DNA from: a virus
Lineage: Duplodnaviria > Heunggongvirae > Uroviricota > Caudoviricetes
Reading direction: 5' to 3' (one strand)
Virus record (IMG/VR): IMGVR_UViG_2690316099_000011
DNA: 17,410 bases
Positions 95-11,018 of the stretch are shown here, one piece after another (the stretch's first letter is position 1; each line of letters opens with the position of its first letter). The notes beneath the pieces were generated by a model, which did not search any database, was not told the origin of the DNA, and saw nothing but the letters and a program-made list of their open reading frames with translations. The position numbers were made by a program, and so were the translations under genes.

Positions 95-140
95 GCGCGT
101 TTGCAGGCTGTATGAAAAATCATTCCCCCGTTAACTCCAA

Positions 141-169
141 ATCCCGCCACAGCGCGGGATTTTTATTTT
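141..169 (+). terminator. Rho-independent terminator-like hairpin (stem ATCCCGC/GCGGGAT, 6-nt loop) followed by TTTTATTTT
   Basis: Perfect 7-bp inverted repeat at 141-147/154-160 followed directly by a T-tract at 161-169, read from the sequence; it lies 35 nt upstream of the activator gene, so it may also overlap the middle promoter or operator. Confidence 0.55.
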
Positions 170-204: not shown

Positions 205-627
205 ATGGCTGAAACACAGATGAGCATGTTTGGTGACAGCGAACAGCTGCACGCGCTGATTGACCGTCTGGATGATATTCCTGATGATGAGCTGAAAAAG
301 AACTGGCCCGGCACGCTGCGGGACCTGGTTGATGTGATCAGTGCTGAACTGCACCGTCAGGGGATTGAACCTGCTCAGGCGGGAATGCTTGCCCGTAAAG
401 TTGCGGCCGCACAGGCCGGGTACATGGGCGGGCGTGGTTATTATCTCCCGGTCGGTGAATCCCTTTTCACCGAACTGCGCAATAATGAGATTTTTTCCCG
501 CTGGAGCCAGGGCGAAAAAATTGAAACCCTGCGCCGCCACTACCAGATGTCAGAGACGCAGATTTACTCCGTTATCCGTAACCAGCGCCGCCTGCATCAG
601 GAACGCACGCAGCCCCGGCTTTTCTGA
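205..627 (+). CDS. Mor/C-family phage transcriptional activator (140 aa), probably the late-gene activator C
   Basis: 140-aa ORF with a C-terminal helix-turn-helix-like segment (MSETQIYSVIRNQRR); the size matches Mu C and it sits directly upstream of the lysozyme gene, with GGAGG 7 nt before the ATG. Confidence 0.6.
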   Translation: MAETQMSMFGDSEQLHALIDRLDDIPDDELKKNWPGTLRDLVDVISAELHRQGIEPAQAGMLARKVAAAQAGYMGGRGYYLPVGESLFTELRNNEIFSRWSQGEKIETLRRHYQMSETQIYSVIRNQRRLHQERTQPRLF

Positions 628-648
628 TATTCCGCAAATCCTGCCCAC
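621..648 (+). promoter_or_regulatory. Putative activator-dependent late promoter element (Plys-like), copy 1 of a conserved 28-nt motif TTTCTGAtatTCCGCAAAtCCTGCCCac
   Basis: 22 of 28 positions are identical to a second copy at 8894-8921 upstream of the protease/scaffold gene; both lie at the heads of late transcription units, as Plys and PI do in Mu. Confidence 0.4.
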
Positions 649-698
649 TTTTTCCCACGGTTACGCTGACTCAGAGAACACCATGAGACAGCGTAACA

Positions 699-1199
699 AT
701 GCCAAAACTCCCCGCACCCCTGCGTAAAAAGCTGATTGCCCTTGTTCTGGCCGGAGCCGGGACGTTCACCATTGCCACGCACTACACCGGCTACTGGGAA
801 GGGAAAGAAAACACCACGTACATTGATCCCACCGGCACCCCCACCATCTGTTACGGCCATACCGGCCCGGATGTGAAACCGGGGATGACAAAAACTGATG
901 AAGAGTGTCTGGAGCTGCTGGAAAAGGACATGAAATGGGCCTTTGCGGCTATCGATCGTCATGTTCAGGTGCCGCTTACCCGTGGTCAGACGGTGGCGTT
1001 GGCCTCCTGGATTTTCTGGGCCGGTGAAACGAACTTTCGCAACTCCACGCTCCTGCGCCTTATCAATGCCGGGCAGATGCCCGCGTCCTGTAAGCAGTAT
1101 ATCCGCTGGATTTATTCAAAGGGGGTGAAACTCCCCGGTCTTGAGGCCCGCCGTTCGGCGGATGAATGGTTATGTCGTTACGACTTGCCGAAAGTCTGA
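699..1199 (+). CDS. SAR endolysin (T4/lambda-type lysozyme, glycoside hydrolase family 24) with N-terminal signal-arrest-release domain
   Basis: N-terminal basic stretch then a weakly hydrophobic Gly/Ala-rich helix (LIALVLAGAGTFTIA), followed by a lysozyme E-x8-D-x5-T catalytic arrangement (EGKENTTYIDPTGTPT) and conserved HTGPD and AAIDRxVxVPLT motifs. Confidence 0.85.
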   Translation: MPKLPAPLRKKLIALVLAGAGTFTIATHYTGYWEGKENTTYIDPTGTPTICYGHTGPDVKPGMTKTDEECLELLEKDMKWAFAAIDRHVQVPLTRGQTVALASWIFWAGETNFRNSTLLRLINAGQMPASCKQYIRWIYSKGVKLPGLEARRSADEWLCRYDLPKV

Positions 1200-2679: not shown

Positions 2680-3261
2680 ATGGATAAGCCAACGCGTGGC
2701 CGTGTACGCAAGGTGGATTTGCTCCCCGACAGCATCCGTAAGCCGCTGCTGGAAATGCTGCGTGAAAAACGCCTGACGCAGGTCCAGATCCGCGAGGAAA
2801 TCAACCGCCTGATCCGTGAGGCGGGTCTGCCGGAAGAGCAGCAGCTTTCACCGGCGGCCATCAGCCGGGAGGCCTCCCGTAATGAGCTGATTGCCCGTAA
2901 CCTGCGTGATTTACGCGAGCAGACAAAAGCCATGATGGCCGAACTGGGGGACAAGCCGACCGGTGAAACCACGGCACTGATTCTGGAAATGTCCCGCGCC
3001 CTGATGTACCGCCGTCTGCGTGCTGCCACCGAATCCCTGAACAGCGACAGCGATGTGGATATGCGCCTTATTAAGGACATCCTCCTGTCGGCACAGCGTG
3101 CGGAAAGTGCCGCCGAGCGCAGCATTAAGCGTGAAAAAGAAATCCGGGCCGCATTTGCTGAAGAGATGGCGAACGCCGTCACCGACGAGTTGCGCGGCGT
3201 GGATGGCATGAGCGAGCAGATAGAATTCCGTATCAGGCAGATGCTGCTTGGTAAGGCGTAG
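2680..3261 (+). CDS. Mu gp27-like protein (DUF3486 family), putative terminase small subunit
   Basis: 193-aa charged, helical protein immediately upstream of the terminase large subunit, as for Mu gene 27; start 3 nt after the previous stop. Confidence 0.7.
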   Translation: MDKPTRGRVRKVDLLPDSIRKPLLEMLREKRLTQVQIREEINRLIREAGLPEEQQLSPAAISREASRNELIARNLRDLREQTKAMMAELGDKPTGETTALILEMSRALMYRRLRAATESLNSDSDVDMRLIKDILLSAQRAESAAERSIKREKEIRAAFAEEMANAVTDELRGVDGMSEQIEFRIRQMLLGKA

Positions 3262-3271
3262 GAGGTGAATC

Positions 3272-3520
3272 GTGGTAACAGATAACCGCTCACTGATGAG
3301 TAGTGCTCATCAGAAGGCATTCAGTCTTGCAACACAGTTACCTCCTGAAACCATAAAAGCGTGTCGTGAGTTGACTGAACTCAGCATTGCCGGGGAAATA
3401 TCCCTGGAACAACTGCATTCGCTGCTGGCAGAGGCTGTCACTGATGAGTTGAGTGGCGTGGACGTGATGACTGAAGAGCTTGAGTTCCGAATCAAAAGCA
3501 TTCTGACAGGTAAAGCCTGA
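3272..3520 (+). CDS. Small 82-aa protein whose C-terminus is paralogous to the C-terminus of the gp27-like protein
   Basis: GTG start with GGAGG 6 nt upstream; the C-terminal 30 residues (AEAVTDELSGVDVMTEELEFRIKSILTGKA) align with the end of the upstream gene (ANAVTDELRGVDGMSEQIEFRIRQMLLGKA); its stop overlaps the terminase ATG. Confidence 0.55.
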   Translation: MVTDNRSLMSSAHQKAFSLATQLPPETIKACRELTELSIAGEISLEQLHSLLAEAVTDELSGVDVMTEELEFRIKSILTGKA

Positions 3521-5184
3521 TGAACAAAGCCAAAGAAACGTCTCCTTCACTGATACAAATGACGCCTCCCCGCAAAATTGATCTGTCCGGTGAAAAAGCC
3601 CTGCTGGGCGTGGATGTGCCGGACAGACTTGATTTGCCCGGTGATATGCCGGTGTTTCTGGATTATCAGGCCCGCTGGTTTGAGGATGAAAGTCAGGTCT
3701 GCATTGCGGAAAAATCCCGCCGCACCGGTCTTACCTGGGCGGAAGCCGGGCGTAACGTCATTACTGCTGCAAAACCGAAGCGTCGTGGTGGCCGCAATGT
3801 GTTTTATGTGGGATCAAAGCAGGAGATGGCGCTGGAATATATTTCTGCCTGCGCCCTGTTCTCCCGCGCCTTTAACCAGCTGGCGGATGCTGATGTGTAT
3901 GAGCAGACCTTCTGGGATCGGGATAAAAAAGAAGAAATTCTGACCTACATGATCCGCTTTCCGAACAGTGGATTCAAAATTCAGGCACTGTCTTCCCGTC
4001 CGTCAAACCTGCGCGGCCTTCAGGGGGATGTGGTGATTGATGAAGCCGCGTTCCACGAGTCACTGGATGAGCTTCTCAAGGCGGCAATGGCGCTCACTAT
4101 GTGGGGCGCGCGCGTGCGTATTATCTCCACGCATAACGGCGTCGATAATCTGTTTAATCAGTACATTCAGGAAGCCCGCGAGGGGCGCAAGGATTACAGC
4201 GTCCACCGCATAACCCTGGATGATGCCATTGCGGACGGGCTGTACCGTCGTATCTGTTACGTCACCGATCAGGAATGGTCACCGGAAAGCGAGCAGAAAT
4301 GGCGTGATGATCTCTACAAAAACGCCCCGACCCGTGAGGATGCCGACGAGGAATACGGCTGTATCCCGAAAAAATCCGGCGGTGCCTATATTCCTCACGC
4401 GCTTATTGAAATGGCGATGATCCGCGACATCCCGATTCTGACGTTTGAAGCCCCGGACAACTTCATCAGCCGTGCCGCATGGCTGCGTGAATCGGAAGTT
4501 TTAACCTGGTGTGAAGAACATTTAAAACCGCTTTTAGAGAAATTAAATCCCCGTTCCCGCTTCAGCTTCGGGGAAGACTTTGCCCGCACCGGTGACCTGT
4601 CCTGCTTTGTGCTGCTGGAAATCACCGAATCCCTGGCAAAGCGCGAGGTGTTTCGCGTGGAGCTGCGCAACCTGCCGTATGCCCAGCAGGAACAGGTGAT
4701 GATGTACATCCTGACCCGCGTTCCGGCGCTGGTCGGTGCGGCGTTCGACGCCACCGGTAACGGCGGCTATCTGGCAGAAGCCGCACTGCTGGCCTTTGGC
4801 CCGGACATCATCGACTGCGTGATGTTGTCGCCGAAGTGGTACGGCGAGTGGATGCCAAAACTGAAAGCCGAGTTTGAAGATCAGAATATCCTCGTCGCCC
4901 GCCATCAGACCACGCTTGATGATTTGCGCCATGTGAAGGTGGTGAATGGTATCCCGCAAATCGACAAGGGGCGCACGAAGGACCAGAACGCAACGGCTGC
5001 GAACGCCCGCCGCCATGGTGATTTTGCCGTGGCACTCTGTATGGCAAACCGGGCGTCATACATGGAGGGATTCATCCTGGATGAATCAGCCTGTCAGGCG
5101 CTGCCGGAGCGGTCGCGGGCAATGGAGGGCGGTTATCGTGATGACGATGAGGCATATCATGAATTTGAACGGGGGTGCTGGTAG
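3520..5184 (+). CDS. Terminase large subunit (Mu gp28-like)
   Basis: 554-aa ORF following the gp27-like gene and preceding the portal; acidic-residue motifs consistent with a terminase nuclease/ATPase (VVIDEAAF, a Walker-B-like hhhhDE). Confidence 0.9.
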   Translation: MNKAKETSPSLIQMTPPRKIDLSGEKALLGVDVPDRLDLPGDMPVFLDYQARWFEDESQVCIAEKSRRTGLTWAEAGRNVITAAKPKRRGGRNVFYVGSKQEMALEYISACALFSRAFNQLADADVYEQTFWDRDKKEEILTYMIRFPNSGFKIQALSSRPSNLRGLQGDVVIDEAAFHESLDELLKAAMALTMWGARVRIISTHNGVDNLFNQYIQEAREGRKDYSVHRITLDDAIADGLYRRICYVTDQEWSPESEQKWRDDLYKNAPTREDADEEYGCIPKKSGGAYIPHALIEMAMIRDIPILTFEAPDNFISRAAWLRESEVLTWCEEHLKPLLEKLNPRSRFSFGEDFARTGDLSCFVLLEITESLAKREVFRVELRNLPYAQQEQVMMYILTRVPALVGAAFDATGNGGYLAEAALLAFGPDIIDCVMLSPKWYGEWMPKLKAEFEDQNILVARHQTTLDDLRHVKVVNGIPQIDKGRTKDQNATAANARRHGDFAVALCMANRASYMEGFILDESACQALPERSRAMEGGYRDDDEAYHEFERGCW

Positions 5185-8088: not shown

Positions 8089-8243
8089 CGGTCAGTGGCG
8101 GGGGTCGAACCCNNNNNNNNNNNNNNNNNNNNNNNNNNNNNNNNNNNNNNNNNNNNNNNNNNNNNNNNNNGGCACCGACTTTACCAGTTAAGCGTACACT
8201 GACCGCCTGTTTATTTTATATTCATCTTTTATGCGGAGGCAAT

Positions 8244-8769
8244 ATGTCATCCATTGATGCGGCGGTCGTGGTGGACGTTGCGCGTCTCCAGCGGGTCTTT
8301 GCCCGGCTTCAGNNNNNNNNNNNNNNNNNNNNNNNNNNNNNNNNNNNNNNNNNNNNNNNNNNNNNNNNNNNNNNNNNNNNNNNNNNNNNNNNNNNNNNNN
8401 NNNNNNNNNNNNNNNNNNNNNNNNNNNNNNNNNNNNNNNNNNNNNNNNNNNNNNNNNNNNNNNNNNNNNNNNNNNNNNNNNNNNNNNNNNNNNNNNNNNN
8501 NNNNNNNNNNNNNNNNNNNNNNNNNNNNNNNNNNNNNNNNNNNNNNNNNNNNNNNNNNNNNNNNNNNNNCGGATTATGGCGATACCTGGGCGCTGATTGG
8601 ATCAAATGAACCTTATGCAGCCATTCATCAGTGGGGGGGCCTGCCTGGTATGCCACCGGGACCGGCGGCCATTGGCGCACGTCCGTATATGGGCTTTGAT
8701 CAGGTGGCAGAACAGGAGATCATGGACGAAATCAGAAAACGCTTTAAAAAGGCCACAGAAACGCCGTAA
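8244..8769 (+). CDS. Mu G-like protein (gp31 position), interrupted by an N-run at 8313-8569
   Basis: ATG 8244 with GGAGG 5 nt upstream; N-terminus MSSIDAAVVVDVARLQRVFARLQ and a C-terminal segment ending at TAA 8767-8769 are in different frames across the gap, so the gap length is not exact. Confidence 0.55.
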
Positions 8770-8893
8770 TGGTTTAAGGTATACAAACGCATTACCTTAC
8801 CCTCTTCAGGCGCGTGTCGTGATTTTCTAACCTGTATTTAACGGGCTTTAAAATCTGCGTGAAGCGCCTTTCTCATTTTTCCCCTGTCAGCAC

Positions 8894-8921
8894 TTTCTGA
8901 AGTCCCGCAAAACCTGCCCCG
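8894..8921 (+). promoter_or_regulatory. Putative activator-dependent late promoter element (PI-like), copy 2 of the conserved motif TTTCTGAagtCCCGCAAAaCCTGCCCcg
   Basis: 22/28 identity with 621-648; lies 26 nt upstream of the protease/scaffold ATG in the only sizeable intergenic gap (8770-8946) of the head gene block. Confidence 0.4.
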
Positions 8922-8946
8922 AAAAACACCGGCTTATGCTGCCGGA

Positions 8947-10071
8947 ATGAAGACGAAAAACACGCCCAAACTTGCTTATGCCATTCTGAATGCCATCAGC
9001 CTGTCCGCAGACGGGGACGGTGACTGGTGTCAGATCATGCCAGCCGGTCGGGTAAAGGCCCGTGACGGTCGCCCGGAAAAACCGGAGGAAGGCTGGCTGA
9101 TTAACCATGCGGCCGTTGAGCGTATGGTATCCGGGGTCGTGGCACTCAATCAGCCGGTGAAGATTGACTATAACCACCAGTCACTGATTGAGGGGCATGC
9201 GGCACCGGCTGCCGGTTTTGTCATGGCCTCGCCGGAGAACTTCCGTTTCAGTGAAGAGCGGGGTTTTGAAGTGCGTCCGAAGTGGAACCCTCCGGCCATT
9301 GAACACCTGCGCAATAACGAATTTCCCTGGTTTTCCCCGGTGATTGGTTATGACGAAATCACCGGTGAACCTGTTGAGCTTCGGATGCTGGCTATTACCG
9401 GTGACCCCGGTCTGACTGGCATGAATCCTGTCGCCGCACTGTCGGCGGATGACCTTTATAACGCCTTAAACCCTCCTTTAAAGGACACCTCCATGAATGA
9501 GCAATTACGCCAGTTGCTGACGGCGCTCGGTCTGACCGTGGCCGACGGTGACGAATTTACACCGGAACTGGGCACGGCGGCGCTGTCTGCCCTTACCGGG
9601 ATCAAAACCCGTGCGGATGCGCACGACACCCTGAAAACGCAGGTTGCCAGCCTGTCGGCAGAGCTGGAAACCGCAAAAGGCACACCAACTGGCGGCACTA
9701 TTGATCTGACGAAATACGTGCCCGTTGAGACGTATAACGCCCTGCGTACCGAATATGTCGCGCTGTCGGCACAGCACGGCAGCACCACGCTGGAGCAGTT
9801 GCTGGATAAGGCTGAGTCCGAAGGACGCATTTTCAAAAGCGAACGCGGATACATGGAAGGACTCGGACAACAGATTGGCGTTACAGCACTTTCTGCACAG
9901 CTTGACGCCCGCCAGCCGGTTGCGGCTCTGACCACTCTTCAGACCGACACCGTGACCGTGCCGGATAAAAAGACCGCCACTGCTGTGCTGTCGGCTGAAG
10001 ATATCGCCGCCGCCCATCTGCTGGGTAAAACCGAAGCCGAGTTCCTGAAAATGAAAGAGGAAATGCAATAA
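8947..10071 (+). CDS. Head maturation protease / scaffold protein (Mu gpI/gp32-like)
   Basis: 374-aa ORF between the G-like gene and the major head gene; N-terminal half globular, C-terminal half Ala/Leu/Thr-rich and helical, scaffold-like. Confidence 0.8.
   Translation: MKTKNTPKLAYAILNAISLSADGDGDWCQIMPAGRVKARDGRPEKPEEGWLINHAAVERMVSGVVALNQPVKIDYNHQSLIEGHAAPAAGFVMASPENFRFSEERGFEVRPKWNPPAIEHLRNNEFPWFSPVIGYDEITGEPVELRMLAITGDPGLTGMNPVAALSADDLYNALNPPLKDTSMNEQLRQLLTALGLTVADGDEFTPELGTAALSALTGIKTRADAHDTLKTQVASLSAELETAKGTPTGGTIDLTKYVPVETYNALRTEYVALSAQHGSTTLEQLLDKAESEGRIFKSERGYMEGLGQQIGVTALSAQLDARQPVAALTTLQTDTVTVPDKKTATAVLSAEDIAAAHLLGKTEAEFLKMKEEMQ
9493..10071 (+). CDS. Possible in-frame nested scaffold protein (Mu Z-like) from an internal start in the protease gene
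   Basis: Internal ATG at 9493 preceded by AAGGA at the boundary between the globular and helical halves; Mu is known to express a scaffold from an internal start of gene I. Confidence 0.35.
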   Translation: MNEQLRQLLTALGLTVADGDEFTPELGTAALSALTGIKTRADAHDTLKTQVASLSAELETAKGTPTGGTIDLTKYVPVETYNALRTEYVALSAQHGSTTLEQLLDKAESEGRIFKSERGYMEGLGQQIGVTALSAQLDARQPVAALTTLQTDTVTVPDKKTATAVLSAEDIAAAHLLGKTEAEFLKMKEEMQ

Positions 10072-11018
10072 TGCCTACCCCGATTACACCGGCGATGATC
10101 ACCGCCCTGATGACGGGCTACCGTTCTGATTTTCAGGCCGGGATGTCCATGGCTCCGTCGCAGTACCAGAAAATTGCGATGACCGTACCGTCCACGTCGA
10201 AATCCAACACCTACGGCTGGCTTGGGCAGTTCCCGCAGTTCCGTGAGTGGATCGGCTCCCGCGTCATCGAGAAGATGAAAGCCTATGGCTACGCCATCGT
10301 GAACAAAACCTTCGAAGGCACCGTCGCCATTAGCCGCGATGACTTCGAAGACGACAATCTTGGCATCTACTCCCCATTGTTCCAGGAGATGGGGCGCGCT
10401 GCGGCGGCACAACCGGATGAACTGGTCTTTGCTGCACTGCGTGACGGGATCAGTGCGGCCTGCTATGACGGCCAGAACTTCTTTGATACCGAACACCCGG
10501 TTTACCCCAAAGTGGATGGCTCCGGGGATGCACAGATGGTCAGCAATATGTTTGTGGCAAAAACCGGCTCTGTCGGTGCACAGGCGGATTACAGTGGCCC
10601 GGCCTGGTATCTGCTCGACTGCTCCCGCGCGGTAAAACCGCTGATTTACCAGGATCGCCGCAAGGCCGAACTGGTTGCCCAGACAAAAGTCGATGAAGGC
10701 CGTGCGTTTACTGATAACGAGTTTGTGTTCGGTGCTTCCGCCCGTCGCAATGTGGGCTACGGCTTCTGGCAGATGGCCTACATGATGCAGTCACCGCTGA
10801 CGCTGGATGCGCTGTGGCACGGCTGGTCAGCCATGCGTGACTTTAAGGCTGACGGTGGCCGCAAACTCGGCATCAAACCCACCCATATTGTTGTCCCCAC
10901 TTCGCTGGAAAAACAGGCGGTGCAGCTGCTGGAGCGCGAGCTGTTCGCGGACGGTAACGCCACAGTCTCTAACGAGATGAAGGGCAAGCTGGAGCTGGTT
11001 GTCGCGGATTATCTGTAA
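10071..11018 (+). CDS. Major head (capsid) subunit (Mu gpT/gp34-like)
   Basis: 315-aa ORF whose ATG overlaps the protease/scaffold stop (TAATG); size and position as for Mu T; followed by a GC-rich hairpin. Confidence 0.88.
   Translation: MPTPITPAMITALMTGYRSDFQAGMSMAPSQYQKIAMTVPSTSKSNTYGWLGQFPQFREWIGSRVIEKMKAYGYAIVNKTFEGTVAISRDDFEDDNLGIYSPLFQEMGRAAAAQPDELVFAALRDGISAACYDGQNFFDTEHPVYPKVDGSGDAQMVSNMFVAKTGSVGAQADYSGPAWYLLDCSRAVKPLIYQDRRKAELVAQTKVDEGRAFTDNEFVFGASARRNVGYGFWQMAYMMQSPLTLDALWHGWSAMRDFKADGGRKLGIKPTHIVVPTSLEKQAVQLLERELFADGNATVSNEMKGKLELVVADYL

Follow-up and report, generated by a model that had tools for sequence, protein, structure and literature searches.

Two copies of a conserved motif mark candidate Mor/C-dependent late promoters in an Sp18-like, Mu-like prophage of Escherichia coli

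The 17,410-nucleotide stretch of viral DNA analysed here (the window) holds two similar 28-nt sequences, both intergenic, both on the sense strand, one directly 5' of a phage lysozyme gene (lys) and the other directly 5' of the gene for a protease/scaffold protein of the Mu I type (I). As the first of them directly follows the gene of a Mor/C-family transcription activator, the locus raises the question of whether the two copies are the sites at which this activator would switch on late transcription, as a preliminary description had proposed, and, if so, how closely the arrangement follows that of phage Mu.

The window is recognizable as a Sp18-like, Mu-like prophage of E. coli. It is 99.9% identical to E. 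coli strain JKHS016, 98-99% identical to E. coli isolate AF39 and 87% identical to a prophage family of O157:H7, presumably that of Sp18 in strain Sakai. Among 5,426 complete E. coli genomes, 231 contain the segment. Complete relatives used for comparison were L002 (AF39) and L074+L075 (O157:H7), and these carry a com-mom pair at the right end. Six N-masked runs interrupt the window, none of them at the motif. In the GemA-like (gp16) gene, 217 nt are absent at the window 84/85 junction by comparison with L001 (20085-20301), and the gene stops early (…IWNKL*), about 72 codons short; relatives that have those 217 nt are otherwise 100% identical to the window. In the relatives, the PGAP annotation has a minus-strand 'tRNA-OTHER' between the F and G genes (L002 19925-20004; L074 28043-28123; window ~8089-8170, partly N-masked), where ARAGORN found no tRNA. 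The gap between the G and I genes contains a block at 8810-8844 (GCGCGTGTCGTGATTTTCTAACCTGTATTTAACGG) that has conserved counterparts in Mu (17896-17935) and in a Citrobacter prophage; the Mu segment adjoins the annotated strong gyrase cut site of Mu, and judging from this block the large G-I gap probably also houses a central gyrase site.

The activator gene encodes a protein of the same length as Mu C, and the Pfam match to the Mor family spans residues 33-139. Identity is 40% to Mu C (111 bits) and 28% to Mor (59 bits), by which comparison the protein is C-type, nearer Mu C than Mor. When aligned with Mu C and Mor, it exhibits the traits of the family (a length of ~100-150 aa, an N-terminal half that is acidic, a C-terminal half that is basic and carries a helix-turn-helix, and a GG(R)xxY(I/L)P beta-strand), and residues G75, G76, Y80, P82 and G84 as well as the SxxQIY helix are invariant. 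One Mor-family gene is annotated by PGAP in each complete relative, L002 and L074; in L002 and L074+L075 it lies directly 3' of a GemA-like gene and 5' of lys, and no separate Mor gene is annotated in these relatives. Three of the six base-contacting residues of Mu C differ, by alignment, in the Sp18-like activator clade: R98 is replaced by E, Q116 by S, T or A, and R120 by N or E. Retained are S110, Q113 and Y115, together with R..Y.P of the beta-strand. The replacements are common to the members of the clade, and the changed DNA-contact residues fit a changed specificity, i.e., recognition of a different DNA motif.

Two short sequences in the protein resemble beta-clamp-binding motifs, QMSMF (residues 5-9; window 217-231) and QPRLF (residues 136-140; window 610-624), each deviating once, at the third position, from the consensus of such motifs (N-terminal Qx[D/E][L/M]F and C-terminal QPDLF; PMC12867686). 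Since both are kept, activation and phage replication are probably linked, as they are in Mu, and clamp-dependent activation of the kind described for MuC would, by analogy, probably apply to this protein as well. Upstream of the activator gene, the terminator-like hairpin with its T run is the upstream boundary of the late-control module and is treated as a terminator only. A Pm-like, Mor-type promoter upstream of position 205 was considered, the hairpin, the T run and CCTGTGTAATGA at 139-190 recalling Mu Pm; this reading was dropped, as the O157 clade does not conserve its downstream part (CCTGTG-AATGA) and other clades have TATAGT after the hairpin at a distance incompatible with -43.5.

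The two copies of the motif are identical at 22 of 28 positions, with CCGCAAA and CCTGCCC uninterrupted, just as first described. The accompanying judgement that such a recurrence is unlikely by chance was overstated. Four direct 28-mer pairs with at least 22 of 28 identities occur in the real window, one of them at 23/28, and the three besides the motif pair lie in coding DNA; the average for a shuffled window is 0.33 such pairs (12 shuffles, all-against-all). The raw 22/28 match is by itself weak evidence, and a pattern test that gave 0 of 200 shuffles is circular because the pattern was derived from both copies. The repeat that exceeds the motif pair (23/28) joins 3175-3202 (GCCGTCACCGACGAGTTGCGCGGCGTGG), at the end of a gp27-like gene, to 3434-3461 (GCTGTCACTGATGAGTTGAGTGGCGTGG), in the next small ORF. 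What marks the motif pair as non-random is its register, its position, its conservation in relatives and a core restricted to the family. Collinear similarity runs on beyond the 28-mers to TTAYGCTG at equal spacing, with 33 of 50 identities over 621-670 versus 8894-8943. The first 7 bases of the lys-side copy still belong to the end of the activator gene, its final codons and its stop (TGA, 625-627), and the promoter in the window thus overlaps the codons for the activator's C-terminal LF; the TGA is nevertheless part of the motif, because distant clades have the lys-side motif well past the stop codon. The positions first given for the copies, directly after the Mor/C gene and in the G-I gap, hold; this gap is not, however, the only one in the head block, since 8089-8253, from F to G, is also non-coding (partly N-masked).

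Conservation was followed through relatives of increasing divergence. The O157 clade has an activator 84% identical to that of the window; divergence there has affected the coding DNA just 5' of the lys-side motif but left TTTCTGATATTCCGCAAA and TTACGCTGAC intact. Within E. coli, the I-side copies read TT(T/C)CTGAA(G/A)TCCCGCAAAACC(T/G/C)G(C/T)CC, the T of 'CCTGCCC' being variable. The diverged loci, with activators 50-69% identical, comprised L004 (Salmonella), L063 (Citrobacter braakii), L008 (uncultured) and L064-L073 (IMG/VR). A genome-collection scan with a single protein gave no matches, and one with an alignment had Citrobacter braakii as its sole find.

A PWM trained on sites from E. 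coli, L004 and L008 was applied to loci outside the training set, L063 and L065-L073, the activators of which are 54-69% identical. The PI position was the top match in all eight test loci containing the region, with scores of 31-36 in seven and of 12.7, within the background range, in L073. The Plys position was among the two best matches in 8 of the 10 loci reaching it (scores 15-30) and lies 40-67 nt past the activator stop codon in the test loci; the best other matches score up to ~15. The sites at both positions have sense orientation, and in each a TAnnnT hexamer starts 13 nt after the 28-mer. Overall, the top match falls at the PI position in L004, L008, L063, L065-L068 and L071-L073, and the O157/Sp18 clade, like the clades with 50-56% identical activators, retains a Plys-type copy downstream of the activator gene. 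In alignments A3 (I side) and A4, TT.CT.A....CCGCAA..C....C and TA...T are invariant, and a TAnnCT hexamer stands at one column in all aligned Plys regions. Fourteen distinct sites give the consensus TTnCTGAnnTnCCGCAAAnCCnnnC, and the late-promoter motif consensus for Sp18-like prophages is TTnCTGAnnTnCCGCAAAnCC.

In none of 75 loci does the 13-base core appear more than twice; its copies lie on the sense strand and always ~8 kb apart. When 2.9 million IMG/VR viral contigs were scanned for the exact core, 28 stretches were returned, all but five of which are the family's two sites; the remaining five are about the number expected by chance and were set aside as unrelated contexts, L045 for instance being coding sequence of an unrelated high-GC phage. 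One sub-clade, L004/L065, has the lys-side motif replaced by a 7-bp inverted repeat, CTGCGGT-N13-ACCGCAG (L004 10430-10500), which keeps the CCGCA half only, without CTGA; its I-side motif is normal.

A TAYGCT hexamer begins exactly 13 nt past the 28-mer in both copies. Counting the hexamer as -12 to -7 places the motif at -53 to -26 of the predicted start sites, and the -35 positions read TCCTGC on the lys side and ACCTGC on the I side. No canonical -35/-10 promoter was found in 1-1200 except inside the coding region, and no canonical sigma-70 promoter in 8570-9200; both promoters exhibit the Mu-type combination of a -10 hexamer with no -35 hexamer. In Mu, late promoters likewise have a -10 and lack a -35, and C protects approximately -55 to -30, with -52 to -34 needed at Plys (PMC2582627), while a cryo-EM preprint places a C tetramer over ~26 bp upstream of the -35 (bioRxiv 10.1101/2025.05.02.651988). 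Applied to Mu Pmom (TAAGAT), the hexamer rule puts the TTAT...ATAA dyad at -43.5, as published, so the rule for passing from hexamer to start is reasonable. On the predicted starts, the extent and position of the motif would fit a Mor/C-type site. Its conserved core is TTnCTGA-N4-CCGCAAA-N-CC. A candidate dyad, TTTCTG-N6-CGCAAA, would be centred at about -44.5 on the predicted start sites; the dyad symmetry to be expected of Mor/C sites is weak, and the claim of a dyad was dropped at 5/9 and 4/9 complementary pairs versus ~2.3 expected by chance, not a convincing excess.

Table 1. Features of the two candidate late promoters, their neighbouring genes and the third core copy. Coordinates refer to the window unless a relative is named.
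Feature	Coordinates	Strand	Sequence, evidence or remark
Terminator-like hairpin and T run, between GemA-like and activator genes	139-162	+	Conserved in relatives
Mor/C-family late activator, putative C orthologue, 140 aa	205-627	+	Pfam PF08765 Mor, E 6.7e-31
Plys-type motif copy	621-648	+	TTTCTGATATTCCGCAAATCCTGCCCAC
Perfect 9-bp inverted repeat	660-697 (arms 660-668, 689-697)	+	GTTACGCTG...CAGCGTAAC
-10-like hexamer, lys side	662-667	+	TACGCT; predicted start ~674, ~25 nt leader to lys ATG at 699
Phage lysozyme (endolysin), first gene after Plys-type promoter	699-1199	+	Pfam PF00959, E 1e-36
Mu G-type virion morphogenesis protein	8254-8769		Pfam
PI-type motif copy	8894-8921	+	TTTCTGAAGTCCCGCAAAACCTGCCCCG
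Inverted repeat around I-promoter -10, ending beside ATG	8930-8946	+	CCGGC-N7-GCCGG
-10-like hexamer, I side	8935-8940	+	TATGCT; predicted start ~8947, A of I start codon
Mu I protease/scaffold, heads head-tail operon	8947-10071	+	Pfam PF10123, E 5e-73, domain from residue 28
Mu T major head protein	10071-11018		Pfam
Third core copy, L002	36608 (36608-36660)		TTTTTGAATTTCCGCAAAA
Third core copy, O157 L075	4417 (4417-4470)		TTACTGAATTAACGCAAAA

The motif stands at unequal distances from the two start codons, for which either different leaders or a different start of the protease gene had been suggested. Different leaders remain the better account, ~25 nt for lys versus 0-1 nt for I. A different start for I is disfavoured: the ORF allows no start upstream of 8947, and the next in-frame ATG, codon 31, would cut into the Pfam domain. 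The I gene has no Shine-Dalgarno sequence at 8947, and in all clades its ATG lies 6-7 nt after the hexamer (TATGCT, TAAGCT, TACGAT or TACGCT), from which spacing we infer, at slightly better than even odds, that the I mRNA is leaderless or has a 1-nt leader. An example of a leaderless phage mRNA is that of lambda cI transcribed from PRM, which the I promoter resembles in having its predicted start at the A of the ATG and no Shine-Dalgarno sequence. Gene callers extend I by ~90 nt upstream, across the promoter, in L004 (18525-18620) and L008 (10552-10650); these extended calls are probably wrong, the conserved ATG being the likelier start.

Inverted repeats accompany both promoters. Before lys, the -10 lies in the left arm of the repeat and the right arm ends directly before the lys ATG, with a predicted RNA fold of -19.2 kcal/mol (z -5.6; 0/200 shuffles). 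This hairpin could form only when transcription reads through from the activator gene, and no terminator was found between that gene and lys; it might hold back lys translation until the late promoter is active. An analogous lys hairpin is found in L008 (z -2.7), and that of L067 is not significant. A hairpin for 'late-only translation' was therefore rejected as a general feature of Plys, being strong in the window and in L008 but not in L067. The repeat around the -10 of the I promoter folds at -9.6 kcal/mol (z -2.65), and similar repeats occur in most relatives. Covariation in this repeat was likewise discarded: 74% of cells pair, but so do 94 of 500 shuffles.

Further copies had been predicted in front of the baseplate/fibre operon and of a mom-like gene, and these proved absent in the two complete prophages: no motif precedes the tape-measure, baseplate or fibre genes or com-mom in L002 and L074+L075, and no additional copy with ≤3 mismatches was found in the complete prophage. 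With no motif before the tail genes, the I operon may run ~14 kb to the tail fibre genes. Matches in L002 at 35595, 8584 and 5669 were rejected for want of a -10, the last two lying also in coding DNA. When a PWM of the 19-nt core was used, the third-ranked match in both complete prophages was a sense-strand copy separating the invertase and DUF6645 genes, outside the window, and its spacing to the hexamer (TATTCT or TATGAT) is shorter by one base than that of the other promoters. This copy is plausibly, from its sequence, a third, weaker late promoter for an accessory cluster.

With a probability of roughly 0.8, both copies in the window are the activator sites of late promoters that depend on a Mor/C-type activator in a Sp18-like prophage. 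Sequence-level tests agree with the proposal of late promoters at the Plys and PI positions, given the Mor/C gene, the lysozyme and I neighbours and the -10 without a -35, and the two-site arrangement recurs in relatives with 50-69% identical activators, the two best motif matches of a ~20 kb locus falling at these positions with equal spacing. Both the binding of the motif by the 205-627 protein and the dependence of the promoters on it we infer from sequence comparison. In the mechanism envisaged, two sigma-70, activator-dependent promoters would drive the late genes, one the lysis, packaging and early head operon from lys onward, the other the head-tail operon beginning with the I protease/scaffold gene. 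The 28-nt motif at -53 to -26 would stand in for the -35; the 205-627 protein would bind it as an oligomer overlapping the -35 region and would, once bound, recruit or activate host RNA polymerase, like Mu C at Plys and PI. Activation would probably be tied to phage replication through the beta-clamp-binding-like motifs, and transcription would start at ~674, giving lys its ~25 nt leader, and at ~8947, giving a leaderless I mRNA.

Several other explanations of the shared sequence were weighed. The motif might be a promoter-proximal site for some other regulator, such as an early or middle phage protein or a host factor, with the adjacency of the Mor/C gene a coincidence of synteny. Consistent with this are the lack of a clear dyad or of the TTAT/ATAA half-sites of Mu C, and the different lys-upstream sequence in L004/L065 despite similar activators. 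However, the predicted -53 to -26 position and the length match Mor/C footprints, the motif co-occurs with this activator clade in every examined locus, and the altered DNA-contact residues fit an altered motif; moreover, no further late regulator is annotated in the complete relatives, and inspection of the motif revealed no LexA box and no resemblance to the CRP, FNR or IHF consensus. Another regulator is therefore an unlikely source of the pattern.

The shared sequence could also act at the RNA level, as a processing, antitermination or translational signal in read-through transcripts. Motif-bearing read-through RNA is to be expected where no terminator separates the activator gene from lys, and stable hairpins lie just 3' of both copies. 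Such a role is nonetheless very unlikely, as the motif lies outside the predicted hairpins, Rfam gave no match in the window (unmasked sequence), and what is conserved is primary sequence at a fixed distance from TAnnnT, not pairing. A chance resemblance of two intergenic regions with no common function draws on the counts given above, ~0.3 pairs at 22/28 per shuffled window and three other such pairs in the real one, but hardly survives the persistence of both copies at orthologous positions where the surrounding DNA has diverged beyond alignment, or the invariance of core and hexamer spacing across clades. The comparative data effectively refute it.

On the reading of the copies as Mor/C-type activator sites, a more far-reaching proposal can be built, which is tentative and rather doubtful: the whole late programme would run via one C-type regulator, with no Mor step, from two or three promoters, and the leaderless I mRNA and the lys hairpin would together enforce late-only expression. 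If this were true, read-through RNA from upstream could not be translated into I protein, the I mRNA being leaderless, and a hairpin with the promoter's own -10 region as its left arm would hide the lys start in such RNA. The result would be a compact block on premature lysis and assembly that needs no terminators.

Sp18 has been described as an intact Mu-like prophage (PMC2669165), and that is the only mention of it found in the literature consulted, which describes the promoters of Mu and in which no description of Sp18-like late promoters was found. A testable late-promoter consensus is now available for the Sp18-like Mu-like prophages, which are common in pathogenic E. coli, and related prophages occur in Salmonella and Citrobacter. 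The comparison suggests that Mor/C-family activators have diversified in DNA specificity with promoter geometry kept. It should be of use for the annotation of prophage operons, I being over-extended in two relatives, and for structure-guided study of how these proteins read DNA. Two smaller points that lend themselves to testing are the head-tail mRNA, predicted to be leaderless, and the hairpin before lys that includes the -10. What is known of Mu-type regulation is unchanged by the finding.

Compared with phage Mu itself, the two candidate promoters occupy the positions of Plys and PI, after the C-type gene and before lys in one case and in the G-I gap before I in the other, and share with them a -10 without a -35; the putative activator site, of ~26-28 bp, would on the predicted starts likewise lie within approximately -55 to -28. 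Mu C sites are built on an imperfect 16-bp dyad with TTAT-N5-6-ATAA half-sites (PMC12867686); here, in contrast, the core is CTGA-N4-CCGCAAA, with 4-5 of 9 positions symmetric. Direct homology to the Mu C boxes was rejected, as the family PWM finds nothing at Mu Plys, PI or Pmom. There is an echo of the motif in Mu, in that Plys and PI share TCCCGCACCT and PI has TCCCGCAAAC, but in another register and at another distance from the -10. The start regions of the two I genes align, whereas Mu, as we read it, has its promoter ~26 bp farther upstream and possesses a Shine-Dalgarno sequence. Mu has four late promoters (one each for lys, I, P and mom), as opposed to two strong and one weaker here, and the P and com-mom positions have no counterpart site in the complete prophages L002 and L074+L075. 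No terminator stands between the activator gene and lys here; Mu has a hairpin in that interval. The Mor-activated Mu Pm is similar in relying on the same activator family and in its general architecture, with a site that overlaps the -35 region, as predicted here; it differs in that the protein here is nearer C than Mor and no separate Mor gene is annotated. The arrangement is most likely the expected design for a Mu-like phage, with a recognition sequence that differs from that of phage Mu.
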